This document shows, in pieces, positions 18,101 to 48,945 of a DNA stretch of 50,407 nt. The position numbers and the translations under genes were made by a program. Where the stretch lies: IMG/VR virus record IMGVR_UViG_3300012988_000008, positions 1 to 50,407 of that record; one strand, 5' to 3'. Source of the stretch: a virus (taxonomy: Duplodnaviria; Caudoviricetes). Below the pieces are notes generated by a model that worked only from the letters and a program-made list of their open reading frames with translations, was not told the origin of the DNA and searched no databases. Each line of letters starts with the position of its first letter. Within the stretch, counting starts at the first letter, position 1.

Positions 18101-20221
18101 TTATGTATTAGCGATTAGACCGTGGCCTAAAGTGCCAAGACGGTCAATGAGAGTGTTTAAAGCTGTACGACATTCAGCGTCAATGGTGGTGCCGCCTGTG
18201 GGTTTGGTGACAGCAGCTTGGCGAGCCCCAAGGACTTTGTTTGCGCCGATGAGGAACGAACTGTCCGAAGTACGCCAAGTGGCTTGAGTGGTCGTAGCAT
18301 GCCCAAAGAAGATGTCACGAGACGTCGAGTGGGCCGACAGGCGAAGGTTTCCGGCGTCTCCGTTGACTATAGCAGTAGTCGCACCGTCGACCAGAAGGAG
18401 ACGAGGAACTGCGTCCGCTACGGTTAGTGCGCCTGTCGTCAAAGACGTTAAGTTCATTGACAAGGCGGCTGCTGTATCAGTGATCCAAATACCATTGGCT
18501 GACAGAACGTTTCCGGTGTCTTGGGCGTCTAAGGTGTTACTGGCGAACGTCGGAACACCGATAATCTTAGCGCCGTTCTTCCAAGCGAGACCCAGCGCAG
18601 AGTTTTGAACTGTTAAGACGTTACCTCCTGACGCGACAATGACACTCGCCCCTTGGTCCAGGGACAGGGCCCCTGTGCTCGGGCCGTACGACAGAATGTT
18701 GGGGTACGCACGAACCGCAGAGCCCAGAAGTTCTACGACGTAGAATTGACCCCCCGAGAACATATTACTGTTCAGAGCGCCCACTGTTCCTTGGCCAATC
18801 GATATAACTCCTGTTCTTGCACCACCGCCAGAGCAACGAACCAGATTCAATTCACCACCGTCTTGGGTAGTCACTGGCGTAAAGGACGGTGCGTAGTCGT
18901 TACCACCAAATGCACAACGGTTCGCGTAGAAGCTACCGCCATTGGCAGTACGAACAGATTTAGTGGGCCCGCCGACAAAGACGTCGTTGTCCATACAGTA
19001 CCAGTAAGACCCGTTGCGGGCCATACCTAAGACAGTACCGTCGGTAGTTGCGTCCGTCCCCGTCCAAGACCAACCAAGGTAGCGGGAATACGCAGTTGCA
19101 TTTTCACTGAGGTTAAAGAAGCCTTCGACGGCCGCTGTGCCCCCAGACCACGCTAAGGTGGCAAAAGGAATTGCAATCTGGCTTTGCGTACGTCCCTGAA
19201 GAACCGTTCGAATGAACGTTGTCGGGGCGACAGGGGCAGTTTGATAACGGGCACGGTACGTGTACGACAGCCGATTTGGTGCTACTGTTCGGACTTGGTG
19301 TCCACCACAGAAGGCCCTCGCGTCGTTGTCCCCCGCCACAAAGATGGCCCCGATAGCTGAGTTCGTCGTAACGTGGTTCGGGAGGGGTGTTCCGACGCCG
19401 ACTGTAACTTCGTACAAAGTCCCGGAAACGGGAGACACAGAAATACTTGTGATATCCATGTACGTGGGGAAAGCGGACGCTTCAAGCCACAGTGACGGTT
19501 GATCAGACCTTCGAATAATTGCTTCGGTTCCAAAGTCGGTCACGCCGTCGGGAAGAATAATCTTGATACGACCGTATCCCGTCAGGATAGTTTTTGACTG
19601 CCAGTCACAAGCGGCTTTGAGGATTGCAAAGCGCTGGGCATTGGTCGTTGCCCCAGAGAAATTGGGGGTGATCGTCAGGTCCGTATCACCGTTGTACACA
19701 AATGGAAGATTACTGGTGTACGCGTACGTAGCTGCCAATTGAGCCGTAGCTTCTTGGTTGATGTCCACGACCTTGGGGGCCACAAGGGTTTTCCTGAAGG
19801 CCTCTGCGTTCGGTGCAGTAAGGTTACCCCCAGTGACGTCTGCCTTAAAGGCGGTCGCTGCAATGGCGTCAATAGCCGCTTGACTGGCTTCTGCTGCGTC
19901 GGCGGCTGCCTGTGCGGCTGCGTTTTGTGCATCTTGTGCGGCGTCCGTAGCGGTGTTTACGGCAGCTTCAAGATTATCTACGGCGACTAAAACTTCTTGA
20001 ACTTCTTGGAGTCGGGCAGGCTCAGTCGGAGTCGTGGGTTCCGGCAGATTAATGATTCGTTCACTGTTCATGTCCAACGGGGCCTGCATCTCGTTGGGGC
20101 CGGTACCGTCACGGCTTAAGGTATTGTCAAAGGCGACAACAATTTTGTCGAAGTCGTCATTGAGACCATTAACAGAGCGATACCCCGAGGCGATGGGACG
20201 CAGATCAATTTTGTCAGACAA
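18101..20221 (-). CDS. Tail spike / receptor-binding protein with probable beta-helix
   Basis: Same N-terminal anchor as 10291-11205, Ala-rich coil, Gly/Asn-rich beta repeats. Confidence 0.72.
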   Translation of the reverse strand: MSDKIDLRPIASGYRSVNGLNDDFDKIVVAFDNTLSRDGTGPNEMQAPLDMNSERIINLPEPTTPTEPARLQEVQEVLVAVDNLEAAVNTATDAAQDAQNAAAQAAADAAEASQAAIDAIAATAFKADVTGGNLTAPNAEAFRKTLVAPKVVDINQEATAQLAATYAYTSNLPFVYNGDTDLTITPNFSGATTNAQRFAILKAACDWQSKTILTGYGRIKIILPDGVTDFGTEAIIRRSDQPSLWLEASAFPTYMDITSISVSPVSGTLYEVTVGVGTPLPNHVTTNSAIGAIFVAGDNDARAFCGGHQVRTVAPNRLSYTYRARYQTAPVAPTTFIRTVLQGRTQSQIAIPFATLAWSGGTAAVEGFFNLSENATAYSRYLGWSWTGTDATTDGTVLGMARNGSYWYCMDNDVFVGGPTKSVRTANGGSFYANRCAFGGNDYAPSFTPVTTQDGGELNLVRCSGGGARTGVISIGQGTVGALNSNMFSGGQFYVVELLGSAVRAYPNILSYGPSTGALSLDQGASVIVASGGNVLTVQNSALGLAWKNGAKIIGVPTFASNTLDAQDTGNVLSANGIWITDTAAALSMNLTSLTTGALTVADAVPRLLLVDGATTAIVNGDAGNLRLSAHSTSRDIFFGHATTTQATWRTSDSSFLIGANKVLGARQAAVTKPTGGTTIDAECRTALNTLIDRLGTLGHGLIANT

Positions 20222-20430
20222 AGTAAATTATGAACCTCTTAAAATAAGAAAACCCTTGTCCCCTTTCCCCTCTAAGTGTATACACCGTGGGTGTGACAAA
20301 GACGGAAAGGTAAGATAAAGGATAAATAAATAAACTGACAAGATTTAAGAATTAATTATATTAGATAATCAAAATAACTAATATCAACTAACCGTGGACA
20401 CTTATAGTAGTGTCTGTCGTTTACTCTACT

Positions 20431-20459
20431 ATTATAACATATTTTAAAGCCTAAGTCAA
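20431..20459 (-). promoter_or_regulatory. sigma70 promoter of the structural arm
   Basis: TTGACT-17-TATAAT with TG extension on minus strand. Confidence 0.8.
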
Positions 20460-20575
20460 CCCCTAAAGACTAAAATAGTTATGGTATCCCCCACTAAGGG
20501 TAATCCACCGAGGTGTAATATCGCTAAGGGTCGTACAGTCCCGTGTATTCCCGACCACCACTTCCTAACATTTAT

Positions 20576-20875
20576 TGTAATACAACCCCGCTTAAAGATA
20601 ATTGAAAGGCGGAAGCCTTGACTTATGGGGATTTTCTCTGAGAAATTCTTTAGGTGTGATATGCATAAAGCGGAACACCCCCAGCCCCCTGCCCCGGGGG
20701 TAAGCATTCGGGGGCTCAGCGGGGGCCATAACATGTATTCATTGGCGGGATTGGTGTATTACAGCGACATGGGTTCAGTAAGTGTATTACACTCCCCATG
20801 TATTCATCACCAAGCTAACCTTATTGATTACATTAACATTAGTCATAGCCCACCAGCCCTTGACTATGTATTACA
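20576..20875. repeat. Cluster of TGTATT(A)CA repeats in the inter-arm region
   Basis: Copies at 20734, 20755, 20783, 20799, 20867; inverted copy at 20576. Confidence 0.6.
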
Positions 20876-20934
20876 CATGAATGACCACATTGGACTATAG
20901 TATAGGCCCCAAAGCTGCACCATTACAAGGGCTC

Positions 20935-21010
20935 TTGACACCGCTCCGCATAAGTTTATGCTGCACCCCATCGTTAAGTTCTTTGACATCGTGAAGCACA
21001 CACCTAGACG
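20935..21010 (+). promoter_or_regulatory. Tandem early promoters (putative)
   Basis: TTGACA-16-TATGCT at 20935; second TTGACA at 20983 with TAGACG. Confidence 0.55.
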
Positions 21011-21060
21011 TTCCCACGTGAGGGCGGACCTATGTCCAAATCTTGTAACGGGAAGCACCA

Positions 21061-21207
21061 ATGCAACAACCAACTGAACAACAGACGGCTGAAGAGCTGA
21101 AAACAGAGTTGGCTCAACTGTCAGCTGACTTCGATAACATCATCAGCCGTATGCGTGACTTACTCGACAACCGCGCTTACTTCACGACGAAGGTGGACCA
21201 TGTTTAA
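21061..21207 (+). CDS. First early protein, 48 aa (MQQPTEQQ...)
   Basis: ATG with upstream GGGAAG; overlaps next gene. Confidence 0.6.
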   Translation: MQQPTEQQTAEELKTELAQLSADFDNIISRMRDLLDNRAYFTTKVDHV

Positions 21208-21436
21208 ATCTATCATCGCCATCTTAGTCGCTAACCTACTGGCTCTGTCAGTAGTTTATGTCGTTCTTGACCTTCAAAGCCCTAGTCCGACGTTTGACTT
21301 AGTCGAATACACATTGGACGGCTCTGTTTATGTCCAAGACTATAGTTTGACTAAAGAAGACTGTATAGACGAAGCGCTTAAGGCCAACACATCAACTAAC
21401 GACTCATCTTATCTGTGTGAGGTGTCAGAAGAATGA
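21200..21436 (+). CDS. Early membrane-anchored hypothetical protein
   Basis: AAGGTGG RBS; N-terminal TM helix. Confidence 0.65.
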   Translation: MFKSIIAILVANLLALSVVYVVLDLQSPSPTFDLVEYTLDGSVYVQDYSLTKEDCIDEALKANTSTNDSSYLCEVSEE

Positions 21437-21627
21437 TGACCTATCAACAATGGCTCAAAAAGTTCCCCCTGCCCCAAAACTACAGGGCAGAAACAATGGC
21501 CGTAACAACAGACGTAATAAACCGTTGTCGGGTAGTAATGGCTGACAACAGAACTACTAAACGACGATTTGATTACGTCGAAGAAATAGCCCGCATTGAA
21601 TGGGCTCTAAGACAATCAGTTATCTAA
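21433..21627 (+). CDS. Hypothetical protein
   Basis: ATGA coupling to previous gene. Confidence 0.6.
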   Translation: MMTYQQWLKKFPLPQNYRAETMAVTTDVINRCRVVMADNRTTKRRFDYVEEIARIEWALRQSVI

Positions 21628-21708
21628 CCATCAACATCCCCGCCCTTACTTGCGAGCGTCTAGCTCAACTGCGCCAACCAGTTTGTTGGTATGATCGGAA
21701 CTAATAAC

Positions 21709-21816
21709 ATGCGTAAATCCACGGTTCTTGAAGAGGCCGTTATCGGTATGCTTGCCGGTTTCATGGTGGCCATTGCTTACGCCGCCTTTGTGTTGGTCTT
21801 TGGCGGGGGCTTCTAA
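21709..21816 (+). CDS. 35-aa single-TM peptide (MRKSTVLEEAVIGML...)
   Basis: Short hydrophobic ORF ending 2 nt before the next ATG. Confidence 0.55.
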   Translation: MRKSTVLEEAVIGMLAGFMVAIAYAAFVLVFGGGF

Positions 21817-21818
21817 AC

Positions 21819-22247
21819 ATGGCCCGCAAAGGTAAGCGCGAACGTATCATTGCAGCGCGTCAATCTATCATGACTGCCAACTGTAATGAACAAAAAGACC
21901 AGCCCCTGTTGACTAAAGGTATCGGCCCCGCCGGTTACAAATCACGGTCAACAGACAATAGAACAGGGCTCAAGGGACGTAACAGCGGTGTCGGTTTCCA
22001 CGGCCCACGGGGCTTTAACAGTCCCGTCTATGCTGTGTCTAAGCGGGAACAGACTAAGGGCCTCATTGGGCCTGTAGCGGGGCCTGACAAGGCAAGGCCA
22101 GCCTTTGGGGTCAATGGGTCACAGCGGTTCGCAGGAGATGAGAAGTGGGCGGCGGAGGAATTCGGTTACGACTACGCCGTGCCGGAACCGTCAGATACGA
22201 TCCTCATGAAGCACCCGCCTAAGCGCCCACGTTGGCGCAAGGTCTAA
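21819..22247 (+). CDS. Basic Gly/Arg/Lys-rich hypothetical protein
   Basis: 142-aa ORF followed by terminator. Confidence 0.6.
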   Translation: MARKGKRERIIAARQSIMTANCNEQKDQPLLTKGIGPAGYKSRSTDNRTGLKGRNSGVGFHGPRGFNSPVYAVSKREQTKGLIGPVAGPDKARPAFGVNGSQRFAGDEKWAAEEFGYDYAVPEPSDTILMKHPPKRPRWRKV

Positions 22248-22257
22248 CACCACTTTG

Positions 22258-22293
22258 GAACCCCCTGGGCGAAAGCCTCGGGGGTTTCTTTTT
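22258..22293 (+). terminator. Intrinsic terminator
   Basis: AACCCCC..GGC-GAAA-GCC..GGGGGTT followed by TCTTTTT. Confidence 0.88.
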
Positions 22294-22380
22294 GTCCCCT
22301 ATTATCAATGGGTTTTGATCTATCATCATTTTTATTCGTCACCCCCTGCAACCAATCCCCCCCTGTGTCATTTATCTCCC

Positions 22381-22842
22381 GTCAGACGGCAAGCGGGCCA
22401 AAGCGAAGGCCACCCCGTCGAACCTGCCCCCGCGAAAGCTGTCGGGGCCCTGACTACGGCGGAAGGCGTAAGCTGACTGCATGGAAAGGGGCCTACGCTT
22501 GGGGGACGTGGTGAAGTCCCGGTGACGACGGGGCTCCGTGGTCCGAAACGCCACCCCGCTTTGCGCCTAGCAAGCGCTGTCCGGGGGCATGTCATGGCGG
22601 AGTATTGGACACGTAAGCAAAACCCCCGCGCATGGTCATGTGTGACCCGCTGTGTGTAGCGTCCAGCGGGGGACAACACCTAGTGGGGTGCTCGCTGGCG
22701 TTAGGCCGGGGCACCCCTCGTGTTGTTAGCATTGAGACGGCAATCTATCATCGCCTGCTTTACACCCCGCTTTGAAGGGTCGTCAGGTTCCACCCGAACC
22801 TTGCCGTTTCTATCCTGACAACAATCCTGTTGTCGGGCTTTT
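22381..22842 (+). ncRNA. Putative large structured ncRNA or 5' leader (~460 nt), family unknown
   Basis: GC-rich, no credible CDS, about 10 nested helices with GNRA loops, bounded by terminators. Confidence 0.65.
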
Positions 22843-22844
22843 CT
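22814..22844 (+). terminator. Terminator/attenuator hairpin before the 211-aa gene
   Basis: CCTGACAACA-ATCC-TGTTGTCGGG then CTTTTCT. Confidence 0.6.
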
Positions 22845-22868
22845 ATCTTATGTGAAAGAGACACTAAC

Positions 22869-23504
22869 ATGGCTCCCCGTAAACCTAAAGCCGCTGCACC
22901 CGTTGACGCTGGCACGACTTCCATCGTTGCCCCGTTGACCTTGGAACAACGCATCGACCGGGCGATTACGCTCGACGGTACGTTTGACACTCAAACGCAT
23001 CTGCTTGCCGTCGAAACCCTTCAACACGCAGCGACTACTGGCGACTTCACCCTGTTCGCCAAGCTGATCGGTGACGTGACCACCAAGGGCGGACAGACCT
23101 TCGGTCGCGGCGTCCGGTCCCGTCGTCTGGCCCTCATCGAATGGGCCGCAGCTTTTAGCCCCATTCGCATCAACGGTGACGGTGTCATTGGCGCCCTCGC
23201 CGAAAGCGCCAAGGGTTATAAGCCGTACAACGTCGAAGGTGCGGAAGCTGTTCCGTTCTTTGATATGCCGTCCGAAAAGCGCCGTCGTGAGACGCACGCA
23301 CCTTTTGACGTCGCTGTCATCATGGGCCGCATCGGCTCCTTCAACAAGGCGATTGATAAGGCCGTCGAAAATGGCTCGCTGAACGATAATGAGGAGGCGC
23401 TCCGTCGCTTCACCGCTGACGTTCAAGCATTCGCCATCGCCAAGGCCGCCGAACTTGGCCTTTCGTCGGACGCAGCTAAGGCTCGCCGCGCCCAAGCGGC
23501 TTAA
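22869..23504 (+). CDS. Conserved early phage protein, probably highly expressed (211 aa)
   Basis: GAAAGAG RBS, strong C-ending codon bias, H....GD.T, W..F.P and PFF motifs. Confidence 0.8.
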   Translation: MAPRKPKAAAPVDAGTTSIVAPLTLEQRIDRAITLDGTFDTQTHLLAVETLQHAATTGDFTLFAKLIGDVTTKGGQTFGRGVRSRRLALIEWAAAFSPIRINGDGVIGALAESAKGYKPYNVEGAEAVPFFDMPSEKRRRETHAPFDVAVIMGRIGSFNKAIDKAVENGSLNDNEEALRRFTADVQAFAIAKAAELGLSSDAAKARRAQAA

Positions 23505-23649
23505 GAGTATATGACCGAACTTAAACGGGGTTAACGTCATTAAACTATGACCCTACTTAAAGACGTGGTGATATTTATTAAACTGGATGACAGGAGGGTC
23601 GTCATGTATCCGCCCCGCTAAATCGGGGCAACCTTTGTGCATATCATTT

Positions 23650-23684
23650 AACCCCCGTCGGTTCACACTGGCGGGGGTTATTTG
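23650..23684 (+). terminator. Intrinsic terminator
   Basis: AACCCCCGTCGG/CTGGCGGGGGTT stem plus ATTTG. Confidence 0.65.
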
Positions 23685-23806
23685 TGCTTATCAATGGATG
23701 CACGCCTTCGGCCTAAAACCGTGGGACGTGTCGCGACCGTGCATCCTTTCATACGCACAGCCGACGTGTTGGTAAGACGTATGAAGTCCATTAGGGACAA
23801 TCTATC

Positions 23807-23974
23807 ATGGACAAATATCAATATACCGTGGACCGCCCCGGCTCAAACGTGGTTGCCGGTGTCATCGCCTGGAACGATACGCACGTTCTCATTGACGTTT
23901 TTATTAACGGTAAACTGAAGACGAACCGCCTGCGTCGGCCTATCGAACGCTTCATGATCGACTACGCGCTGTGA
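23807..23974 (+). CDS. 55-aa hypothetical protein (MDKYQYTV...)
   Basis: AGGGA RBS; GTGA overlap with next gene. Confidence 0.6.
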   Translation: MDKYQYTVDRPGSNVVAGVIAWNDTHVLIDVFINGKLKTNRLRRPIERFMIDYAL

Positions 23975-24210
23975 GTGACACGACGGAGCCGTGCGGCGGA
24001 TGCGGCGAAGCTGATCCTATGAAGCGGTGCGTCGGATGCATGCACGACTTCCGCGCCCAGACGAAAGCCCGCGAGGACGCGCAGCCGGTGTGCCCGACTT
24101 GCAAAGGAACGGGCGCACTATGGGGCGGCGCAACAGGTCACATGATTTGTGAAAAGTGCGGCGGGTCTAGCAACAACCCCGCCCCCGACGCGCTGCGGGT
24201 AGCGGTGTAA
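23971..24210 (+). CDS. Cys-rich Zn-finger protein, GC-rich
   Basis: Four CxxC pairs including DnaJ-like CPTCKGTG. Confidence 0.6.
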   Translation: MSDTTEPCGGCGEADPMKRCVGCMHDFRAQTKAREDAQPVCPTCKGTGALWGGATGHMICEKCGGSSNNPAPDALRVAV

Positions 24211-24256
24211 GAAGTAATCTATCATCAGCTGTCTTACGCTTCGCATTTACAAGGAA

Positions 24257-24454
24257 ATGTTGATGTCCATTCGTTTTACACTGACTAATCGTAATAATGG
24301 TATTATCACGACTGTCGATGCCCCCCGTCGTGGTGAACACATCAAAGATGGCTCGGTAAAGGTCCTACAACCGACCGCTCGCGACTGTAACACCCTCATG
24401 CAAGACATTAAACACATCACCAAGTTGGGTGAAAAAGGAGGAATTTTGGCATGA
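24257..24454 (+). CDS. Hypothetical protein
   Basis: AAGGA RBS; ATGA overlap. Confidence 0.55.
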   Translation: MLMSIRFTLTNRNNGIITTVDAPRRGEHIKDGSVKVLQPTARDCNTLMQDIKHITKLGEKGGILA

Positions 24455-24780
24455 TCGACGCCAACGCAGAAATCCGAGCGAGGCGGGACGAACTCCAAAC
24501 AGAACTGGCAACAGTTCAAACACAGGTTGCATCCCTCAATCGAAAGGCTAAGTCAATCAGAGGGGAGCTTGAACCCCTTAATCGTAAGCTTAAGACTGAA
24601 AACCTGATCGTAGGTTCGCGTTGGTATCTGCCTAGTATGAGGTACTATTCGACAACCCGCAAGGACGTTCTCGTGATTCATAAGACCGAGACATACGTCA
24701 TCTATATTCACGGAGGACAGCCTGAACGTATGGGGATGCAAGACTTTTTGAGCAAAGCCGCCTTTAGGTCCTTGACATAA
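24451..24780 (+). CDS. Hypothetical protein with N-terminal coiled coil
   Basis: AGGAGG RBS. Confidence 0.7.
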   Translation: MIDANAEIRARRDELQTELATVQTQVASLNRKAKSIRGELEPLNRKLKTENLIVGSRWYLPSMRYYSTTRKDVLVIHKTETYVIYIHGGQPERMGMQDFLSKAAFRSLT

Positions 24781-24800
24781 TCATAGGCTCGTGTTATAAT
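24772..24800 (+). promoter_or_regulatory. sigma70 promoter
   Basis: TTGACA-17-TATAAT with TG extension. Confidence 0.88.
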
Positions 24801-24820
24801 CTTCTTGCAAGGAAGGGTAA

Positions 24821-25180
24821 ATGGACCTAACATCTTGGTTACTTCTTATATGGTTTGTAGGGGCCATCTGTTCCGCCCTTTTGGGGACCTACCTCGGCGC
24901 TAAATATCCTGAAGTTTCAGGAGAGGGTATCGTAATCGTCGGAATTTTTTGGCCCATCGCCCTCGCTGGGGGCATAATTGCACTACCATTTATCGGAATC
25001 GCCCTTTTAGGAGAGGCTTCAGGTAGACGCCTTAAGGCTAAGAAACTCGCTGCGTACGAGCGAGAAGAGGCCGGACGTAAGGCGCTGGCCGACAAATGGG
25101 CCGAAGAAAATAAAGACTGGTACTGGCACTACAATCCTTACAGTCGTCAGAACTACACCTTCAAAACCCCGCGACCTTAA
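24821..25180 (+). CDS. Membrane protein (2 TM)
   Basis: AAGGAAGG RBS; hydrophobic helices with FWP motif. Confidence 0.75.
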   Translation: MDLTSWLLLIWFVGAICSALLGTYLGAKYPEVSGEGIVIVGIFWPIALAGGIIALPFIGIALLGEASGRRLKAKKLAAYEREEAGRKALADKWAEENKDWYWHYNPYSRQNYTFKTPRP

Positions 25181-25200
25181 GTGAAAAGGAATCTATCATC

Positions 25201-25626
25201 ATGAACAGTCTTTCTTGGCTTCTGTACTTCGCTGGCATTGCTGGCCCCCTTTCTTCTGCCCTCAATCAACTTGCTGTAATTATGTTGTTAGGTTTTGCAG
25301 CTGCGGTTGTCGCGGGCCTTATTACATATGCTAGCACCTCGACGTCGTCTTATGACGATGAGGACGACAGGAAGACGAAGGCCCAAATTCGGGGCGTTGT
25401 CAACAAGTACGCAAAGATTTTGCCCAAGTGGTTGGCCCTGCCGCTGATTTGTATGGTTGTCTCTTCTGTTATTCCTCCCAAGGAAACTCTGTACCTCATC
25501 GCAGCTTCGGAAGTCGGCGAACAAGTCGTGACCAGCCCGACGATGACTAAGGCTATTGACGCCCTTAACCGTCTTCTGGACGGAGTCGCAGTTAAGAAGC
25601 CGGCCCAGAATACTCCCGCCACTTAA
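25201..25626 (+). CDS. Membrane protein
   Basis: AAGGA RBS; TM helices; IP.KET.Y.IAASE.GE motif. Confidence 0.75.
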   Translation: MNSLSWLLYFAGIAGPLSSALNQLAVIMLLGFAAAVVAGLITYASTSTSSYDDEDDRKTKAQIRGVVNKYAKILPKWLALPLICMVVSSVIPPKETLYLIAASEVGEQVVTSPTMTKAIDALNRLLDGVAVKKPAQNTPAT

Positions 25627-25639
25627 GAAGGGACCCACA

Positions 25640-25831
25640 ATGAAGGGGCCAGCCGTTCCTAAGTCCCCGGTTAAAGGTACTCGATACGATCCGCCAGAAG
25701 ATTGGTTGTTCGGTAAAGGGTACTATGGGCCGCCCGATTTAAGGCCGCACCCGTCTGGATATACGTACGACCAAATTCGAATGTGGTTTGACTACAAAAT
25801 CAATCGAAAAACCGGTTTGATATATCCCTAA
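25640..25831 (+). CDS. Hypothetical protein
   Basis: GAAGGG RBS, ATG at 25640. Confidence 0.55.
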   Translation: MKGPAVPKSPVKGTRYDPPEDWLFGKGYYGPPDLRPHPSGYTYDQIRMWFDYKINRKTGLIYP

Positions 25832-25838
25832 CATTTTT

Positions 25839-25923
25839 GTCCGCGTGGTGGAATTGGTAGACACGACAGACTTAAAATCTGTTGCTAATTGGCGTACGAG
25901 TTCGAGTCTCGTCGCGGACACCA
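25839..25923 (+). tRNA. tRNA-Leu (anticodon UAA) with encoded CCA
   Basis: Acceptor GTCCGCG/CGCGGAC, D loop GG, ACAGA-CTTAAAA-TCTGT, long variable arm, TTCGAG T loop, ACCA end. Confidence 0.95.
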
Positions 25924-25934
25924 AGGAGGTTTAA

Positions 25935-26216
25935 GTGTGGGGGAGCCCTGTTGAAGTAGAGACCAGAAGACGAGTCTTATTAACGTATTATGCGTATGCG
26001 TACGAATATTTAGACTTGTCACTGGTTTCAGACGAAGAATTCGATAGGATGTCGTTTGAAGTGGATTTATCCATAGATACGACTAGACCAGACTTAGACA
26101 GTTTCTTTCGGACACATTTTAATCCGTACACAGGAATGTGGATACGAAATCACCCCGATTTGAGACGAGTACATAAAAGAATTCATCAGGTGTTTAAGGA
26201 TAAAATAAATGCGTGA
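25935..26216 (+). CDS. Stand-alone protein resembling NAD-dependent ligase subdomain Ia
   Basis: AGGAGG RBS; AYAYEYLDLSLVSDEEFD resembles YY..D.P.ISD.EYD. Confidence 0.6.
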   Translation: MWGSPVEVETRRRVLLTYYAYAYEYLDLSLVSDEEFDRMSFEVDLSIDTTRPDLDSFFRTHFNPYTGMWIRNHPDLRRVHKRIHQVFKDKINA

Positions 26217-26661
26217 ATTTAAAGCAGGCGACAAAGTTCGTGTACTTCCACACGAGGAAGTAGTAGTCAATGGTACCATGTATTATTCTATTTCTCTTTC
26301 CGTAGGTCGGGTTTTTACATTGAAGGAAAGAGCATTAGATCAGGGCCGTCCTGAAGCATGGCTCGTAGAAGAAGGTCCTATTTATCTCCATCCGACGTGG
26401 ATTGAACTGGTGCCGGAACCCACCATCGAAGAGCAAATCGAAGCCAAGAAAGCTGAACTGAAGGAACTCGAAGACCGGCGGGTAGCCGAAGGCGTCAAGG
26501 TCGGTGATAAGTTTAAGGCGTCACAAACGGTTTTTGAAATTGTTGCGATCTCAGGTAGATATTGTTGGTGGAAAACCAAAAACAATAATAGGGGTGGGAC
26601 GGAATGTTGTGAGACCTTCCTTAGAACTTCCGCTTATACAAAGGTGAATGACAGCAAATGA
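26209..26661 (+). CDS. Hypothetical protein with two SH3/KOW-like halves
   Basis: FKAGDKVRV and VKVGDKFK. Confidence 0.65.
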   Translation: MREFKAGDKVRVLPHEEVVVNGTMYYSISLSVGRVFTLKERALDQGRPEAWLVEEGPIYLHPTWIELVPEPTIEEQIEAKKAELKELEDRRVAEGVKVGDKFKASQTVFEIVAISGRYCWWKTKNNNRGGTECCETFLRTSAYTKVNDSK

Positions 26662-27050
26662 CACTTCGCATTCAACCCTTCCCGCTTTGCTGCGGTATCG
26701 CAGTCGTAACGGGCTTTGGTAACGATCCGCGTCATGCCCATCGTGACCGTCGAGACGGTGCCCCCACAATGGCCGAGATCGAACAGTATCTTACGAACGC
26801 GGCTGCTGGTGGTTTGACCGGGGGAGGTCCCTTCCAAGGTACTGGTCTGGGTCGTGTGGGTATGCTGTTGGCAGCCGTAAACGCCGAACAGCGTGTGTTT
26901 ATGCAGCCCATCTTCCGGCGTCTTGGTTGGCGCCGTGCGGGGCGGGCACACAATATTCACAATCACCCTAACTCACGTCCCGGTGACGACAATTACTCTG
27001 AAATTTTCTTGTATAGGAAGGTGTTGGCGAATGCCCAAGACGATGACTAA
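26658..27050 (+). CDS. CCG-motif protein, GNAT-like (paralogue 1)
   Basis: FPLCCG...VNAEQ...FRRLGW...HNH; first gene of amidoligase cluster. Confidence 0.6.
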   Translation: MTLRIQPFPLCCGIAVVTGFGNDPRHAHRDRRDGAPTMAEIEQYLTNAAAGGLTGGGPFQGTGLGRVGMLLAAVNAEQRVFMQPIFRRLGWRRAGRAHNIHNHPNSRPGDDNYSEIFLYRKVLANAQDDD

Positions 27051-27417
27051 TACCCCTAAGCCCCAACACCTTTTCGTCTACGGTACGCTTCGTGACGCGC
27101 ACCCCAACTCTAAGCGATTCGGGCTGACTAGTGTCGCTAAACACAACGCCAAGTTGATGGGCTTCAATGTCCACAACCTTGGTTGGTTCCCCGGGATCGT
27201 ACCGGGCGAAGGCTTCGTAGTGGGGGACGTCTTCCACATCACAGACGATTTGATCCCGGGTCTGGATGCATACGAAGGTGTGCCCAGCCTGTACCGCCGG
27301 GAAGTTCATAAGGTCGGCTCGACTAACTGTTACGTGTACGTGTACAACGGCACACCGCCGCCGGGCTCCCAGATCACCGACGGTGACTGGCTCAAAACAA
27401 CTCAAGCGAAGGGTTAA
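27031..27417 (+). CDS. Gamma-glutamylcyclotransferase (GGCT/AIG2-like)
   Basis: LFVYGTLR, FPGI, V.G.V, LDAYEG..Y.R. Confidence 0.9.
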   Translation: MPKTMTNTPKPQHLFVYGTLRDAHPNSKRFGLTSVAKHNAKLMGFNVHNLGWFPGIVPGEGFVVGDVFHITDDLIPGLDAYEGVPSLYRREVHKVGSTNCYVYVYNGTPPPGSQITDGDWLKTTQAKG

Positions 27418-27426
27418 TCTATCATC

Positions 27427-28524
27427 ATGGCTAAACAACCCCAACAAGTCGGTCCGGGCTTGGTCCGCCGGTACATTCGACTAAGGTCGGGTAACCGTGC
27501 TTGGCGCATGGTTCGGCCGGATAATCCGAATATCGTTTATCCTCAGCCCAACGATGCCCCGGCCCAACGTCAAATACCGGCTGCCCCCGTGCCAGTAGCA
27601 GAGTCTCTAAACCCCGTGCCAGTAGCAGAGTCTCTAAACCCCGTGCCAGTGGCCGAACCCCTAACCCCCACGACAAAGCCCGATAAACCTCGTAAGTTTA
27701 AAGACGTTGGTTATCCTGCTTGTTGCGGTGCGTCGTTTCTTCTAATCGAGCCGCCGGCTTCTAAAAAGAAAACCCCTGAAGAAGAGGCTCGTTCGTATTA
27801 CGAAGCCAAGAACTTTGTCGCAACCCGTGATAACTACTTAGGGTACGTTAAAGTATACGAAGACGACCTTAAAGGTTGGGAAGCCGGCGGTAAAAAGGTT
27901 CGAACCCCTCGGGGGAACCACCCAAATACTACAAGACAATACATAAAAGATTACCAAAATGCTGCTGATTCGTATGAATTTGAGTATATGTTCAAGAAGG
28001 GTTTGTTGAACGGCAAAGCAGGCCAATATGACCGGGACATGGCGACCTACAAGTCCCCGGGGATCGCTTTGTCTATGGACCAATTTCATGGGGCGCATCA
28101 AACTCCGGCGGGTCTGTGGGTCCGTAATGACTACGAAATCCGGGAAAATTATTCGGGCAAACCCTTCACGGTTCCAGAGCCTTTTGAAACTCCTGACGTA
28201 AAACGGGACAAGGCCGTTGCGCTGACTCTTACGTCGCACACACACGACAACGGGTATAAAGTCCACTTAATTCAGGGCATGTCCCGAGACGATCTGGCTA
28301 ACGACATCGCCAGTTTCATTGCAAGGAATAAGAAATTTGCGGTCGGAGACGTCGTTACCTTTATCCTTAATAAGGGCCAAGGGACTCAACAAAAGCTGAA
28401 TAAGTTGGCCGCAGCGGGATATCGTCACGTTTTAACGACGTCAAACGCTAACCATAACGGGTCGTCTATTCTGTACTTGTTTGAACGGACTCTTACAGAC
28501 GTGGACAAACCGAATGGACAGTAA
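27427..28524 (+). CDS. CCG-motif protein (paralogue 2) with large insertion and Pro-rich repeats
   Basis: YPACCG...LNKGQ...AAAGY...NANH...LYLF. Confidence 0.7.
   Translation: MAKQPQQVGPGLVRRYIRLRSGNRAWRMVRPDNPNIVYPQPNDAPAQRQIPAAPVPVAESLNPVPVAESLNPVPVAEPLTPTTKPDKPRKFKDVGYPACCGASFLLIEPPASKKKTPEEEARSYYEAKNFVATRDNYLGYVKVYEDDLKGWEAGGKKVRTPRGNHPNTTRQYIKDYQNAADSYEFEYMFKKGLLNGKAGQYDRDMATYKSPGIALSMDQFHGAHQTPAGLWVRNDYEIRENYSGKPFTVPEPFETPDVKRDKAVALTLTSHTHDNGYKVHLIQGMSRDDLANDIASFIARNKKFAVGDVVTFILNKGQGTQQKLNKLAAAGYRHVLTTSNANHNGSSILYLFERTLTDVDKPNGQ
27585..27665 (+). repeat. In-frame 27-bp tandem repeat x3 (PVPVAESLN)
   Basis: CCCCGTGCCAGTAGCAGAGTCTCTAAA twice exact, third copy degenerate. Confidence 0.92.
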
Positions 28525-29203
28525 GTTTCCACTGGTATTTATCGCCAGCCGTCTTGATCCAAATGTGATGGGCCTTTTCTACGATATGGGTTTTCGTGGC
28601 ACAAACGATTTGATGCTGGCGGACGTCTGTGTCTTCACTGGTGGAGAAGACATTCATCCTCAACGCTACGGTGAACCTCTTATTCCAGAGTGTGGTCGTC
28701 CTAATGAAAAGCGGGACGCGCACGAAGCTGACACCTTTAGGAACTGTGTCGAATTTAAAGTCCCTATGATCGGTATTTGTAGGGGCGCACAATTTCTGAA
28801 TGTAATGAACGGCGGACGTCTGTGGCAACACGTCGACAATCACGGCGAGTCTCACAACGTCCGTTGTTTGTTGTCCGAGCAAGTTTTTAAAGCAACTTCT
28901 ACCCACCACCAAATGATGCGTCCGACAGAAGACGCCGAGGTGATTGCAGTCGCAGAAAAATCTCGCCCGGATGTCACCTTTAAGACTCCGTCTCTGTGTA
29001 CCGCACGGATGGCTGCGGGAATTACCCAACTGCCTAACACCGAAGACTACGACCCCGAAGTCGTGTGGTACGAAAAGACTAAGTCTCTGTGCGTACAATT
29101 CCATCCCGAGTACAACAAGGCGTCCGACAGTTGTCGTCCGTACTTCGTCAAACTCGTCGAAACCCTTTACCCCGAACTGTTTAAGCCGAGAGAGGCAGCA
29201 TAA
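28514..29203 (+). CDS. Class I glutamine amidotransferase / peptidase C26 (PuuD-like)
   Basis: TGGEDI.P..YG, GICRGAQ, S.HHQ, QFHPE. Confidence 0.9.
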   Translation: MDSKFPLVFIASRLDPNVMGLFYDMGFRGTNDLMLADVCVFTGGEDIHPQRYGEPLIPECGRPNEKRDAHEADTFRNCVEFKVPMIGICRGAQFLNVMNGGRLWQHVDNHGESHNVRCLLSEQVFKATSTHHQMMRPTEDAEVIAVAEKSRPDVTFKTPSLCTARMAAGITQLPNTEDYDPEVVWYEKTKSLCVQFHPEYNKASDSCRPYFVKLVETLYPELFKPREAA

Positions 29204-30537
29204 TGTGTGGACTCGTAGGAGTTGCAGGTGATCTATCAGGGCCTGACATTAAAGTCTTCAACAACCTTCTTTACTTCGACTACGTCCGGGGCTCCCACAG
29301 CACCGGTATTGCCAGTGTTCCCATGCACGGTGCAGCCGAGCCGACGCTCCTCAAGGCGGCGACCGATCCTCTTGGTCTGATGGGCTTCAAGGCGTACGAC
29401 ACTGCGGTCACGCCGTACAAACGTATTATTATGGGCCACAATCGGCACGCCACGAAGGGTGCTGTAAATCGGGTTAACTCACATCCGTTCCACGTGGGTA
29501 ATATTTTGGGAGCGCACAATGGTACCTTGGATTACTCGTGTCTCCGAGACCTTGAAAATGCACCGGAAGGTGAAACGGACTCCGAACAGTTGGTGGCTAC
29601 CATTAACGCCCTTGGGGGCGACATCGCGGGCGCTCTTGCACTGACTTCTGGTGCTTGGGCCTTGACAATCTATAAGGCCGAAGACAATTCGATTAACTTC
29701 GTCCGAAATAGTCAACGTCCGCTGTACTACGCCTTCAATGAATCTCGGAAGGCTCTTTATTGGGCGTCCGAAGCATGGATGCTTAGTGTCGCTCTTACAC
29801 GGAATGACATTAAGTTCTCTAAGATTATGGAAGTTCCGGTCGACACCATTCTGTCTTGGGGTATTCCGAAACTGAACCAGACCTTTGCTGATAAGCCCAC
29901 CCGTGAAAAAGCGGAGGGTAAGAAGGCAGCAAATTTTCGAACGCACGGACAAGGCGCACCGTGGATGGACTGGGGGCGGGAAGACGACAACAGCCGCCAG
30001 TTCGACCGAAGAACTGCTCAAACAAGCGGTGGAAACGAATCCAAAAAGCTTACCAGCGACAACAAGGAAGTTGTTGATGTCAACGACGACGATGAAGGCT
30101 GGGGGGCATACTACGAAGGCTTTATGGCCGGAGAGACGGGCCGTCCCCGAGCAGACAACCCGTACGACCACGCCAAACAAGGGCTCCACTGGGAACAGTG
30201 GCGAGACGGCTGGGTCGCAGGAGACGCCGCTGACGTCAAGGCAAAAAATTCCAAGAATAAGGACAAAGAAAAGAAAGACATTGTCAAGCCTTCTGATAAC
30301 AATGTTGTTCTCTTTTCCGAAAAAAAAGAAGCCCCTTCGTCTAGCGTCCGTAGAGGGCCCGGCGGAAACTACATCAACGCTGGAAAATTCCGAGAGCTGA
30401 CGGGCAACGAATGTGGTTGGTGTAATAATCCGATCACTTTCGCCGACAAGGGCTTCTTTATGCAACACGCAGCTAAGACAATCTTTATCTGCGAAACCCA
30501 CGGTTGCGCTACCGACAAAACCCTCCAACAAATGTAA
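29203..30537 (+). CDS. Class II (Ntn) glutamine amidotransferase with C-terminal extensions
   Basis: MCG N-terminal nucleophile, RG..STG, H.R.AT, HPF, HNGT, TDSE, RN..RPL, ASE; C-terminal Cys cluster. Confidence 0.92.
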   Translation: MCGLVGVAGDLSGPDIKVFNNLLYFDYVRGSHSTGIASVPMHGAAEPTLLKAATDPLGLMGFKAYDTAVTPYKRIIMGHNRHATKGAVNRVNSHPFHVGNILGAHNGTLDYSCLRDLENAPEGETDSEQLVATINALGGDIAGALALTSGAWALTIYKAEDNSINFVRNSQRPLYYAFNESRKALYWASEAWMLSVALTRNDIKFSKIMEVPVDTILSWGIPKLNQTFADKPTREKAEGKKAANFRTHGQGAPWMDWGREDDNSRQFDRRTAQTSGGNESKKLTSDNKEVVDVNDDDEGWGAYYEGFMAGETGRPRADNPYDHAKQGLHWEQWRDGWVAGDAADVKAKNSKNKDKEKKDIVKPSDNNVVLFSEKKEAPSSSVRRGPGGNYINAGKFRELTGNECGWCNNPITFADKGFFMQHAAKTIFICETHGCATDKTLQQM

Positions 30538-31395
30538 GTGAACATGAAAAACAATCGTTTTACTAATCGTTTTACTATTGGTGCTGACCCTGAAATGTTT
30601 GTCCAACAGGCTATGCCGGGACAAGAGCCGAGTATTATTTCTATCCATGGTTTGATCCCGGGTGACAAGCGTAATCCCTTTGCCGTCCGGGGTGGTGCCA
30701 TTCAAGTCGACGGTATGGCCGCTGAGATTAACGTCAATCCGGCACGAAACCGGCAAGAGTTCATGGACAATATTCGGTCGGTCATGGACGAACTTCAAGG
30801 ACATCTTCCGCCGTTTACTAGCATTGTTCACGGTCTTCCGGTCGCCGACTTTACGGCTGACTACATGGCAACCCAACCCCCTGAAGCAGTAGAGTTGGGC
30901 TGTGAGCCGGATTACAATGCTTGGACGGGCAACATTAACCCCCGTCCCAATGGTTCAGCTTTGTTCCGTACGGCGTCGGGGCACATCCACCTTGGCTGGG
31001 ACACGAACGTTAGTGACCCTTATGGTGACAAAGAGCACTTCGAACTGTGCTGCCGTATTGCCAAGCAAATGGATTACTATGTCGGTATCTACAGCTTGCT
31101 TTGGGACCCCGATAATCGCCGTCGCGATCTTTACGGTAAGGCGGGTGCATTCCGTGCTAAGTCGTACGGCTTGGAGTATCGCACACCGTCGACAGCGTGG
31201 CTTGCTAAGCCGGAACTTCAAGCGTGGGTCTTCGACGCGTCTGTCAAGGCACTGACTGACTACTTCAACGGTGACGTTGCCGAAGACCTGTTCGGGGACA
31301 TGGCACGATCTATCATCGACACCAACGACATTGACTGGCAGAAAAAGGTTGACTTTGACCTTGACCTCGTTCTGCCGTATCAACAGGCGGCTTAA
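30538..31395 (+). CDS. phiEco32-like COOH-NH2 ligase type 2
   Basis: IGADPE, GCEPD.NAW, RTA.GHIH.G, RR.LYGKAG.FR.K.YG.EYR. Confidence 0.9.
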   Translation: MNMKNNRFTNRFTIGADPEMFVQQAMPGQEPSIISIHGLIPGDKRNPFAVRGGAIQVDGMAAEINVNPARNRQEFMDNIRSVMDELQGHLPPFTSIVHGLPVADFTADYMATQPPEAVELGCEPDYNAWTGNINPRPNGSALFRTASGHIHLGWDTNVSDPYGDKEHFELCCRIAKQMDYYVGIYSLLWDPDNRRRDLYGKAGAFRAKSYGLEYRTPSTAWLAKPELQAWVFDASVKALTDYFNGDVAEDLFGDMARSIIDTNDIDWQKKVDFDLDLVLPYQQAA

Positions 31396-31408
31396 CAGGA
31401 GGGCTTAG

Positions 31409-32059
31409 GTGCTTAAATACGATACTTTGGAGCAAGCACAATTTCGGCTCCGACAGTCTGTCATTATGTACAAGGGTGAACCCTATTACTGTGACGCAGT
31501 TAATAAGCGCGGTAATGGGCCCATTCGTCTGTCCCTTATGGGACTTCCGATTTCTGGCACGGTGCCGACTGGGAAAGAAGGTCGAATCATTACCGTCGAT
31601 CAAGACGACGAAGACTTGGATTTCCGAATCTTCCGGCTTGGTTACATGAATGACCCTCAAAGACGGTCTGCGACGTTCTTGACTCGGACATCGTCCCGGC
31701 AGCAGCATCAAGGCCTAACCCGAGCGACGATTTTCCCGCAACCTTCCGGGTCTGCCATGTCGGGTCCAGCTATGCGTGATACTTTGATGGGTATCTATCC
31801 ATCCGTCGAAGAAGCTTTTAGTCGGATTAACGACGAAGGTTGGGCGTCTTGTGCCATCAGTCGAGACTTTGCTGTCGGTAGGTCTAAGGAAACCCCGCAA
31901 GTTCGCACCCTTATGTACAGGGGACGACCTGTAGGTGTAGCTTTAGGCTTAAAGTTCCAACATTTTCTGATTAACAAAGAAGACGAGTACTTGTCGGAGG
32001 CATTGCAAGAGGCAGGCTTCCCTTTCGAAGTGGACGAAACAGATGCAAAAACCTCTTAA
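31409..32059 (+). CDS. Conserved hypothetical protein of the amidoligase cluster
   Basis: AGGAGG RBS; LGY.N, R...RQ..QGL, A.SR.FA, L.YRG..VG. Confidence 0.75.
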   Translation: MLKYDTLEQAQFRLRQSVIMYKGEPYYCDAVNKRGNGPIRLSLMGLPISGTVPTGKEGRIITVDQDDEDLDFRIFRLGYMNDPQRRSATFLTRTSSRQQHQGLTRATIFPQPSGSAMSGPAMRDTLMGIYPSVEEAFSRINDEGWASCAISRDFAVGRSKETPQVRTLMYRGRPVGVALGLKFQHFLINKEDEYLSEALQEAGFPFEVDETDAKTS

Positions 32060-33164: not shown

Positions 33165-33915
33165 AATCTTTAGTCATAATCCCGGTAGTCGGGGAGCAGG
33201 AGAGCTCGCAAATGCCCTTGGAATTGCCCGGGTCCGACACGTGGGAAGCCGAGTTCGGTGCGGCCGACAAGACACCGTTATCAATTGGGGAAGTGGCCGT
33301 GCTCTCCCTGATCATGTTGCTGGGGCTGGTCGTATTCTTAATGCCCCGGCTGCTGTCGCAGTGGCTTCGAACAAACTCCGATGCTTTGAGCGTATCGGCG
33401 CTAGGGCTCGTTGTGTTCCTTACACTACCCAAGCTGGCGTAGCTCGTGATTGGGGCACCAAGGTTGTAGTCCGACATACGCTTAACGGACATTCTGGTGA
33501 AGGCATTGAAATTGTCGAGCCGGGGGTTGACATCCCGGCCGCGCCATGCTATACTAAGTACATTGTCAAGGAGTCCGAATGGAGAATTCATGTCCTCAAC
33601 GGTCAAGTCATCGATGCAACCCGTAAGATTCGAGACCCTGACTTCGTAGGCGAACCGAACTGGGCGGTACGAAATCACGCGGGTGGGTTTATCTTTGCAC
33701 GTAACTCGGGTGAACCGTCTGAAGACGTCGTGCGACAAGCAGTCGCCGCAGTGGAAGCTGTTGGACTCGATTTCGGTGCTGTAGACGTCATGGTCTCAAA
33801 ACCGACTCGTGGTCATCCGGAACGCTTAGCGTACGTACTTGAAATTAACACTGCACCCGGTTTGGTGGGCACTACGGTCGAAAGGTATCGCGATGCGTTC
33901 CGAACCATCCTTTGA
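33154..33915 (+). CDS. ATP-grasp ligase (RimK/GshB-like)
   Basis: INWG, ASNK, GHSG.GI, E.R.HV, LDFGAVD, LEINTAPG. Confidence 0.9.
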   Translation: MATKIFSHNPGSRGAGELANALGIARVRHVGSRVRCGRQDTVINWGSGRALPDHVAGAGRILNAPAAVAVASNKLRCFERIGARARCVPYTTQAGVARDWGTKVVVRHTLNGHSGEGIEIVEPGVDIPAAPCYTKYIVKESEWRIHVLNGQVIDATRKIRDPDFVGEPNWAVRNHAGGFIFARNSGEPSEDVVRQAVAAVEAVGLDFGAVDVMVSKPTRGHPERLAYVLEINTAPGLVGTTVERYRDAFRTIL

Positions 33916-38608: not shown

Positions 38609-38609
38609 A

Positions 38610-39397: not shown

Positions 39398-39423
39398 TGT
39401 AGTATTACCCCCGCTGCAAGAAT

Positions 39424-47058: not shown

Positions 47059-47060
47059 TC

Positions 47061-48939: not shown

Positions 48940-48945
48940 CGGTTA

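Follow-up and report, generated by a model that had tools for sequence, protein, structure and literature searches.

Conserved RNA structure with mutually exclusive pairings ahead of a phrog_1448 early gene: a possible two-state leader in a phage genome

Introduction

What does a phage keep in almost half a kilobase of early-region DNA that encodes no recognizable protein? The question is raised by the complete, 50,407-base-pair (bp) IMG/VR virus record IMGVR_UViG_3300012988_000008, which carries direct terminal repeats and was analyzed at its full length (the window). A block at positions 22381-22842, richer in G+C (0.632) than any other 400-nucleotide (nt) bin of the window, lies here between two + strand genes. 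The upstream gene encodes a protein of 142 amino acids (aa; 21819-22247) and is ended by T1, an intrinsic-terminator-like hairpin with T-tract at 22262-22293 (+ strand; 8 pairs, 6 of them G-C, tail TTTCTTTTTG); the downstream gene (22869-23504, + strand, ATG at 22869) encodes a 211-aa protein that matches phrog_1448. A sequence-only reading had proposed that the block gives rise to one large structured RNA. Our analysis places conserved RNA structure in the 3' part of the block, directly before the 211-aa gene, where it may serve as a two-state leader.

The stretch was compared between the window and two relatives. The 211-aa protein has 21 homologues besides itself, and DNA was compared for two of these: L002 (the same contig as L004, genome G001), whose protein is 57% identical, and L003 (within L005, genome G002), whose protein is 44% identical. 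These two loci have a common layout, consisting of an orthologue of the 142-aa gene, a T1-equivalent terminator hairpin 3' of it, 450-530 nt without a conserved open reading frame (ORF), and the 211-aa orthologue. As the sequence-only reading held, the stretch is non-coding: among 54 stop-to-stop frames of at least 25 aa in the three genomes, all cross-genome matches are of 28 aa or fewer and fall on conserved DNA motifs.

A conserved RNA structure in the 3' part of the spacer

Folding of 22619-22845 gave a z-score of −3.66, and the equivalent stretches of L002 and L003 gave −5.19 and −5.40; none of 200 shuffles was as stable in any of the three, and in all three genomes the + strand folds more stably than the − strand. 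The claim that the block is structured beyond chance therefore holds for this part and fails for 22376-22618, which, folded alone, has a z-score of −0.22, with 80 of 200 dinucleotide shuffles as good. For the whole 462 nt, the + strand has a z-score of −1.85, equaled by 3 of 100 shuffles, and the − strand one of −1.83. Model R1, built from the single sequence 22619-22730, matched L002 with 59.7 bits (E-value 2e-11). In a three-sequence alignment of the junction and hairpin described below, pairing holds in 94.9% of 98 cells, and both sides have changed in 20 of 35 pairs. None of 500 shuffles did as well, and registers slid against each other gave 39-46% paired cells and 1-2 such pairs; the alignment was fitted by the model from the window's own fold, so the counts lean toward structure, and the slid controls use the same alignment. 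We conclude that the structure of 22619-22845 is real and conserved, and that the selected + strand RNA structure claimed for the whole block is found in this part.

The structure begins with a three-way junction at 22623-22672 (+ strand), made of helix J (22623-29/22666-72), hairpin Ha (22634-38/22643-47, loop UGUG) and hairpin Hb (22648-51/22658-61, loop GUGUGU). Of its 16 pairs, 11 are changed on both sides, the evidence being clear for the window against L002. A helix proposed earlier at 22646-52/22664-70 does pair, but as an alternative to this better-supported junction. Stacked on the junction is a long hairpin, Hc (22673-22726, + strand), with three helices: Hc1 (22673-79/22720-26, whose strands we call a and a'), Hc2 (22685-91/22711-17) and Hc3 (22695-99/22705-09). 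In the Hc helices, 9 of 14 pairs are compensatory, which bears out the earlier helix at 22672-79/22720-27 with its inner GGGGTGC/GCACCCC pairing. A U-G pair in Hc3 is kept in the three genomes, and the apical 16 nt of the hairpin (22694-22709, GCTGGCGTTAGGCCGG) are conserved, being identical in L002.

A long-range helix shares its strands with two hairpins

Downstream of the junction, duplex prediction revealed a long-range helix that was not on the earlier list. Its strand X (22721-22743, + strand) begins with 6 nt that are also the 3' strand of Hc1, and its strand Y (22801-22823, + strand) ends in 22814-22823, which are also the 5' strand of a second hairpin, T2. The helix has 21 pairs and −27.7 kcal/mol in the window (mean of shuffled sequences −11.3), 27 pairs and −43.9 kcal/mol in L002 (2852-2880 with 2933-2961; shuffled mean −16.3), and 30 pairs and −51.8 kcal/mol in L003 (2825-2856 with 2904-2934; shuffled mean −22.3), with none of 1000 shuffles as good in each case. 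The X:Y strands were aligned ungapped, anchored at the first base of the motif ATCTATCATC, independently of any structure model. In this alignment, pairing extends to 64 of 69 cells; of the 23 columns, 18 pair in every one of the three genomes and 17 are changed on both sides; shifted registers gave 23-31 paired cells out of 69 and 1-5 columns changed on both sides. The pairs include 8 G-U, and A/C is absent from the 5 unpaired cells; the complementarity thus exists only in RNA of the + strand. The helix is also particular to this place. Among 23 copies of ATCTATCAT tested in the three genomes, only the copy before the 211-aa gene is flanked by the long helix (z-scores −2.6, −6.2 and −6.0), the other 20 ranging from −1.4 to +1.8.

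The helix closes a loop of 45-57 nt, the best-conserved sequence of the spacer, in which L002 and L003 agree at 92% over 48 nt. At its 5' edge stands a copy of ATCTATCATC with the extension (N)CCTGCYTTAC (22743-22768, + strand), the region of this copy being 88% identical to L002 over 26 nt and 90% identical to L003 over 21 nt. T2 itself (22814-22848, + strand) consists of a stem, 22814-23/22828-37 (strands b and b'), followed by CTTTTCTATCT. It is terminator-like in the window, with 10 pairs and the tail CTTTTCTATC, and in L002. Both the upstream terminator (22262-22293) and the hairpin with T-tract at 22814-22842, between which the sequence-only reading had placed its RNA, were recovered by the terminator scan; that the latter is simply the terminator of that RNA is not supported, for its 5' strand doubles as a strand of the conserved 21-30-bp helix. 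From the end of T2 to the start codon there are 31, 31 and 26 nt in the window, L002 and L003, respectively, and a block of 26 nt at 22836-22861 (+ strand), containing the ribosome-binding site AAAGAGA, is identical in L002.

Two mutually exclusive states

Over its outer 8-9 bp, X:Y is built from two strands that also belong to the flanking hairpins, a' (3' strand of Hc1) and b (5' strand of T2); the whole 5' strand of T2 is covered by X:Y in all three genomes. Within each genome strands a and b have a common 6-nt core, and this core differs from genome to genome (ACAACA, CTGACA and CCTAGC). Such identity of a and b within a genome is expected only if the pairings a:a', b:b' and a':b are all kept, that is, only if mutually exclusive structures are both under selection. 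Constrained folding was used to compare state A (Hc, the inner X:Y hairpin and T2) with state B (full X:Y, with a paired to b'). The two are near-equal in the window (−95.4 and −92.3 kcal/mol) and in L002 (−85.6 and −87.1), and lie at −92.6 and −101.1 in L003.

These features suggest that 22619-22848 is a cis-acting two-state leader of the 211-aa gene, about 230 nt long, whose output is a stop or hairpin cap at T2 as against read-through; we are as ready to believe this reading as to doubt it. The leader would be transcribed on the + strand within the early transcript, directly 5' of the ribosome-binding site. From 5' to 3' it would present the three-way junction, Hc with its conserved apical loop, a hairpin with X and Y as its arms and ATCTATCATC-CCTGCYTTAC in its loop of about 50 nt, and T2 with its U-rich tail. 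In state A, a would pair with a' to close the base of Hc and b with b' to form T2. In state B, a' would pair with b and extend X:Y to 21-30 bp, a could pair with b', and T2 would be blocked. The arrangement would follow the 1:2 / 2:3 / 3:4 logic of attenuators, with Hc as anti-antiterminator, X:Y as antiterminator and T2 as terminator, and the state chosen would fix the fate of the transcript just 5' of the gene. The balance might be set by a factor bound to one of the two conserved loops, that of Hc or that of X:Y, as PyrR acts on the Bacillus pyr leaders. At 21-30 bp, the state-B helix would be long enough for an RNase III site, and processing may replace or accompany termination.

A leader of similar design in phage Cd1

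Orthologues of the 211-aa gene occupy early positions in other phages. In Caulobacter phage Cd1 (GU393987), the orthologue (34% identity) is the first gene after the annotated early promoters, and in Ralstonia phage RSB1 the family member is ORF2. The 163 nt upstream of the Cd1 gene (1350-1512) have a z-score of −3.38, with none of 200 shuffles as good. They can fold either into three hairpins (−59.1) or into one extended helix that absorbs the flanking strands (−64.5), with common UAGC/GCUA cores, and the element sits 24 nt before the start codon. Cd1 thus has the same downstream family, the same place and the same choice between three hairpins and an extended helix as the window; it differs in that its loop holds no ATCTATCATC and in that it is a true 5' leader behind annotated early promoters, with nothing annotated there. 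A further model, R3, gave 8.0 bits on the + strand (E-value 0.06) and 11.1 bits on the − strand of Cd1, detecting no sequence homology. Since this match is not convincing, the likeness is one of design, with homology not shown. Brevundimonas phage Babayka is near-identical to Cd1 and does not count as independent. The leader of a further orthologue, in BMB50, folds weakly (z-score −1.87).

In Cd1 (L151), the ~600 nt that lead from the last of the annotated early promoters to the first gene (913-1509) carry no annotation. The whole 600-nt leader has a z-score of −0.90, and only its last ~160 nt fold significantly.

Weighing the leader against other explanations

Several observations speak against a two-state leader, beginning with the fact that all pair counts rest on three sequences. 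At the syntenic place in L003, model R1 gives 11.9 bits (E-value 0.84); Ha and Hc are kept there, and J and Hb may fold otherwise, which makes the junction ambiguous. The T2 hairpin of L003 is kept with a different stem sequence, and its tail is TTCT, so that the terminator scan does not list it. Moreover, L003 prefers state B by 8.5 kcal/mol. Because of this preference and the missing U-tract, termination at T2 may not be the conserved output. Among orthologue leaders, those of RSB1 (z-score −0.05) and phiNV3 (z-score −0.21) show no significant fold. Nor did a sensor emerge: the three genomes have no conserved leader ORF, no riboswitch or T-box model matches, and neither a ligand-binding fold nor a known protein site was recognized. 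The early promoters lie upstream of T1, so the reading also assumes that transcription passes T1 to reach the element. Should ATCTATCATC be a promoter, RNA begun within the X:Y loop would be missing strand X, leaving the switch to read-through transcripts alone.

The L003 observations are more easily accommodated by a different account of the same helix, in which state B is the native form within an early polycistronic transcript and host RNase III cuts it, freeing the loop piece without any termination decision. The upstream product would then end 3' in Hc and the downstream mRNA would start 5' with T2, both ends being protected, and the identity of a and b would follow from the need of both products for terminal hairpins. 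Few mismatches interrupt this long helix of 21, 27 and 30 pairs; unconstrained folding has its minimum in state B in L002, L003 and Cd1; and the phage belongs to the T7 supergroup, its DNA polymerase being nearest to those of SIO1-like phages and pelagiphage podoviruses. According to PMC3867540, the T7 early precursor is cut at five intercistronic signals, the cuts make stabilizing 3' ends, and the idealized E. coli RNase III substrate has 22 bp. Against this two-turn length, L002 and L003 have 27 and 30 pairs, and the window, with 21 pairs and two mismatches over 23 positions, is borderline. State A is the window's minimum, which speaks against processing, as does the fact that an internal loop and a single cut are usual for T7-type sites. 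RNase III is thus favored by L003, with its strong preference for state B and its lack of a U-tract, and attenuation by the window and L002, where U-tracts are present and the two states differ little in energy. RNase III processing in place of a switch is a possibility that we take seriously but think improbable; the two may both be true.

The proposal from which this work started, a stand-alone RNA acting in trans as decoy, scaffold or ribozyme and running from T1 to T2 (~230-550 nt), fits less well than a cis-acting leader. In its favor, the stretch is non-coding, hairpins with T-tracts stand on both sides in the window, two loops are conserved in sequence while their stems vary, and Rfam holds no match. 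Two copies of ATCTATCAT, 415-550 nt apart, also bracket the stretch in each of the three genomes and would delimit a discrete RNA if they were promoters or cleavage sites. On the other side, the interval from T1 to the structure holds no sigma-70-like promoter in the window, L002 or L003, another type of promoter being possible. The weak promoter CTGCAA-17-CATTTA put forward earlier was missed by the sigma-70 scan and would have no room in L002, where the structure starts about 10 nt past T1. The 5' half shows neither conservation nor more structure than chance would give, T2 competes with the conserved helix and has no U-tract in L003, and the element always adjoins the ribosome-binding site of the same gene, Cd1 included. 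It is the missing promoter, the unconserved 5' half and this constant position that make a free-standing RNA less likely, and its alternative pairings likewise point to a leader; we regard the trans-acting RNA as unlikely.

The inverted repeats might instead act as DNA, as an operator, cruciform or invertible segment around a motif resembling a promoter or nick site, the hairpins being by-products. ATCTATCATC is strictly strand-specific and over-represented, its TATCAT looks like a −10 hexamer (TTGTTA-17-TATCAT, 22723-22751, in the promoter scan), and the X and Y arms form a 21-30-bp inverted repeat around it. Yet the G-U pairs and the lack of A/C mismatches make X and Y complementary as + strand RNA only; the kept U-G pair of Hc3 and the better folding of the + strand in three genomes say the same. 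Copies of the motif show no −35 enrichment upstream, 45-57 bp would make a very short spacer if the segment were invertible, and the annotated ORFs include no recombinase gene. A DNA-level element is therefore very unlikely. Least likely of all is the absence of any function, the helices having arisen by chance in a decayed gene or a spacer rich in G+C. That account fits 22376-22618 and the whole 462 nt, whose modest z-score is the same on both strands, but for 22619-22845 it is refuted by covariation.

Returning to the two-state leader, we note one bolder version of it, which we think rather doubtful: the junction and Hc, with its invariant GCUGGCGUUAGGCCGG loop, and the AUCUAUCAUC-CCUGCCUUAC loop might represent a new class of factor-sensing phage RNA switch that times the first conserved early gene of T7-like phages without an RNA polymerase of their own. 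If so, the junction and Hc with GCUGGCGUUAGGCCGG would form the domain that binds a small molecule or a protein of host or phage origin, and the conserved AUCUAUCAUC-CCUGCCUUAC loop a second recognition site, common to about ten other places on the early transcripts. The freed upstream RNA might also work in trans.

The 5' half of the spacer

The helices that suggested a single multi-domain RNA of about 460 nt exist on paper. All seven for which both coordinate ranges had been given match the letters and pair fully (6/6, 7/7, 8/8, 5/5, 5/5, 7/7 and 8/8), and the GTAA loop and the TGGACA/TGTCCG complementarity are likewise present. Nevertheless, the 240 nt that form the 5' part of that RNA, a G+C-rich non-coding spacer at 22376-22618 (+ strand) with the reader's helices P1-P5, are indistinguishable from random G+C-rich sequence and are not supported as conserved structure. 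Their equivalents have z-scores of −1.49 (L002) and −2.09 (L003). A covariance model of P1-P5 (model R2) found no syntenic match, the best syntenic scores being 3.7 and 4.5 bits (E-values 1.9 and 1.3) and its better-scoring matches falling inside coding sequence; by eye, helices like P1 and P2 can be drawn in L002 and none in L003. Aligning the three spacers with MAFFT gave no reliable result. We treat the 5' half as spacer whose nested helices are such as composition gives by chance, a view that closer relatives could overturn.

The only word of the 5' spacer common to all three genomes is the 9-mer GCGAAGGCC (22403-22411). Over 5 nt (AAGGC) it is complementary to GCCTT in the conserved loop CCTGCCTTAC (window 22755-22763); the window has GCTTT in place of GCCTT, with which AAGGC still pairs through G-U. 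A long-range contact between GCGAAGGCC and the loop is possible, and chance could explain so short a match. The 5' spacer of L003 contains two GTCA-TGCG-TGAC hairpins (2469-2484 and 2688-2703), about 220 nt apart, which are absent from the window and L002.

Searches for known families and further relatives

Searches of the window, L002 and L003 against the 4227 models of Rfam 15 gave no match for the element, as the sequence-only reading had expected. At the gathering threshold, the sole match in the window is a transfer RNA (tRNA; 25839-25920). With E-values up to 10, 22200-22900 gave four matches of 7.5-15.6 bits, to be set against thresholds of 45-114, and L002 and L003 gave only far-below-threshold matches, mostly at the T1 hairpin. 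RNase P, transfer-messenger RNA, signal recognition particle RNA, group I and II introns, T-boxes and known riboswitches were dropped on these grounds, ARAGORN too reporting only the tRNA-Leu. A leader peptide was rejected because the window ORF at 22632-22775 is not conserved, and a retron or omega-RNA because no reverse transcriptase, TnpB or IscB is among the annotated ORFs.

Further relatives proved scarce. A blastn search of the region against 50,697 phage records returned no match, a megablast search with 20000-26000 returned the tRNA only, and an exact 29-mer from the window had no match elsewhere. The single 211-aa protein found no related locus in viral contigs; the 22-protein alignment found two loci in viral contigs, one in metagenome contigs (the L002 contig) and none in genome contigs. 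A search with the motif pattern recovered L002 and L003 only, and a wider pattern gave 25 stretches, all chance except the known ones. A 14-mer of the Hc loop occurs in at least 119 stretches; model R1, applied to 118 of them, gave one chance match (seen twice, 21.3 bits), away from the 14-mer. In a single DNA sequencing run, which probably represents the source sample, the contigs show no variants. The literature results for surveys of structured phage RNAs, in the extracts returned, consisted only of papers on families already in Rfam.

The motif ATCTATCATC elsewhere in the early region

At up to one mismatch, ATCTATCATC occurs 11 times in the window (21208-40870), always on the + strand and in the early/middle region, where 1.87 copies are expected and none of 100 shuffles reaches 11. 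Exact copies start at 21208, 22318, 22743, 24217, 25191, 27417, 31308 and 34942, and one-mismatch copies at 21863, 23800 and 40861. Its core, TCTATC, has 19 copies on the + strand and a single one on the − strand, and G001 and G002 have 5 exact copies each, all on the early-gene strand. Within the locus, the first copy (22318-22327, + strand) lies in the A+T-rich spacer after T1; the nearest upstream copy in L002 and L003 lies before T1. The mean best −35 score upstream of 25 motif copies is 2.52, compared with 2.43 in the background, and this absence of −35 enrichment rules against a sigma-70 promoter. The extracts returned by a literature search for the motif held only unrelated primers. ATCTATCATC might work as a promoter of one element that depends on a phage factor, as an operator of translation, as a cleavage site or as a strand-specific nick site.

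Some copies stand at an ATG: those at 25191 and 27417 lie directly before the first ATG of an ORF, that at 23800 contains a first ATG, and that at 34942 directly precedes an ATG inside the ORF 34367-35002; others lie inside genes. An extended motif (ATCTATCAT-N3-CYGNCTWMC) recurs downstream of the 211-aa gene (window 24217-24240, L002 3750-3775, L005 12246-12270), where it precedes the next gene block without a flanking long helix; model R3 has weak matches nearby (window 24178-24310, 14 bits; L002 3749-3807, 9.5 bits). L002 also has a second non-coding stretch of about 290 nt (4587-4876) before a small gene, MSIRF..., whose start lies within a motif copy at 4870. This stretch contains a hairpin whose loop, CTGGCTGTAATGGCTGG, is like the Hc apex, together with a long-range helix of 8 bp, GAGGGCCT/AGGCCCTC; it matches R1 with 9.5 bits (E-value 2.8) and R3 with 20.2 bits (E-value 1.5e-4), and may be a paralogous leader.

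Genome context

The − strand of the window (3-20221 and 46627-50403) carries structural genes, for terminase, portal/adaptor, major head protein, tail and a 1530-aa internal virion protein. The + strand (~21061-46357) carries early and replication genes, for primase-helicase, family A DNA polymerase, Cas4-like exonuclease, a ThyX-like enzyme, ribonucleotide reductase and an amidoligase/glutamine amidotransferase cluster. Sigma-70-like promoters are concentrated in the divergent region 20300-20960 (sigma-70 scan). The + strand has no ORF of RNA-polymerase size, and the DNA polymerase shares no more than 40% identity with its counterparts in SIO1-like roseophages, pelagiphages and a Mesorhizobium podovirus; this places the phage in a new T7-supergroup lineage that depends on the host polymerase.

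The 211-aa protein has no Pfam family, and phrog_1448 has no assigned function. Its best match among PDB profiles, Hjc, is not significant (E-value 0.077), and in Atlas it meets only viral hypothetical clusters. A very strong terminator-like hairpin of 14 pairs (23649-23680, + strand) lies 3' of its gene, which therefore has hairpins on both flanks, T2 preceding it. A perfect sigma-70 consensus promoter (TTGACA-17-TATAAT with TG) stands at 24772-24800 (+ strand), within the end of ORF 24451-24780, and has a counterpart at 4329-4356 in L002. The genome's sole tRNA, a tRNA-Leu with anticodon TAA (25839-25923, + strand), is 87% identical over ~67 nt to a tRNA-Leu of the uncultured crAss-like phage cr271_1. 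Genes of peptide-modification type occupy 26893-33915 (+ strand), encoding a gamma-glutamyl cyclotransferase, two glutamine amidotransferases, a COOH-NH2 ligase, an amidoligase and a RimK-like S6 glutaminyl transferase; one of the glutamine amidotransferases has a stretch resembling ribosome modulation factor (Pfam RMF, E-value 1.5e-6).

Significance and comparison with known systems

Early-gene regulation is almost undescribed in T7-like podoviruses that use the host polymerase, a large and mostly uncultured group to which SIO1-like phages, pelagiphages and this soil lineage belong. The element offers a clean test case, a compact candidate switch with four-strand covariation before a widespread early gene, phrog_1448, and Cd1 provides a culturable system with the same topology. 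The locus also carries a lesson: a G+C-rich spacer yields many nested helices by eye, and half of what looked like a large, 460-nt RNA consists of chance helices. What remains is a new RNA family with three members and a look-alike in Cd1, of well-known logic and in a well-known kind of place.

The large RNAs of bacteria and phages (GOLLD, ROOL, OLE, HEARO, raiA) and the antitermination RNAs that act in cis (HK022 put, EAR) are likewise non-coding and structured, and GOLLD, ROOL and put are phage-associated. The present element differs from them in matching none of the 4227 Rfam models and in the size of its conserved part, about 230 nt as against 400-800. The put RNAs, moreover, stand directly after a promoter and consist of two simple stem-loops.

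The early RNase III signals of T7 include one before gene 0.3. Like these signals (PMC3867540), the element is a long imperfect hairpin of about two helical turns between early cistrons. It also lies directly before the first conserved early gene of a T7-supergroup phage. There is no similarity in sequence or model, and the sharing of the outer turn with two flanking hairpins is not known for T7.

The closest parallels are the terminator/antiterminator attenuators with an anti-antiterminator hairpin, such as segments 1-4 of the trp leader and the PyrR-controlled Bacillus pyr leaders. Unlike these, the element has no conserved leader peptide and no PyrR, TRAP or T-box site recognizable with Rfam, and its putative antiterminator, at 21-30 bp, is of unusual length and encloses a conserved loop of ~50 nt. 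Its U-tract is missing in one of three genomes, and it is encoded by a phage, a T7-supergroup podovirus without an RNA polymerase of its own. The shared features are the four segments, of which 2 can pair with 1 or 3 and 3 with 2 or 4, and an upstream hairpin whose sequence-conserved loop could hold a protein; in the window and L002, the G+C-rich 3:4 hairpin just ahead of the gene also ends in a U-rich tail. As in an attenuator, the putative antiterminator helix X:Y uses the 5' strand of T2, and Hc, upstream, can sequester the antiterminator strand.

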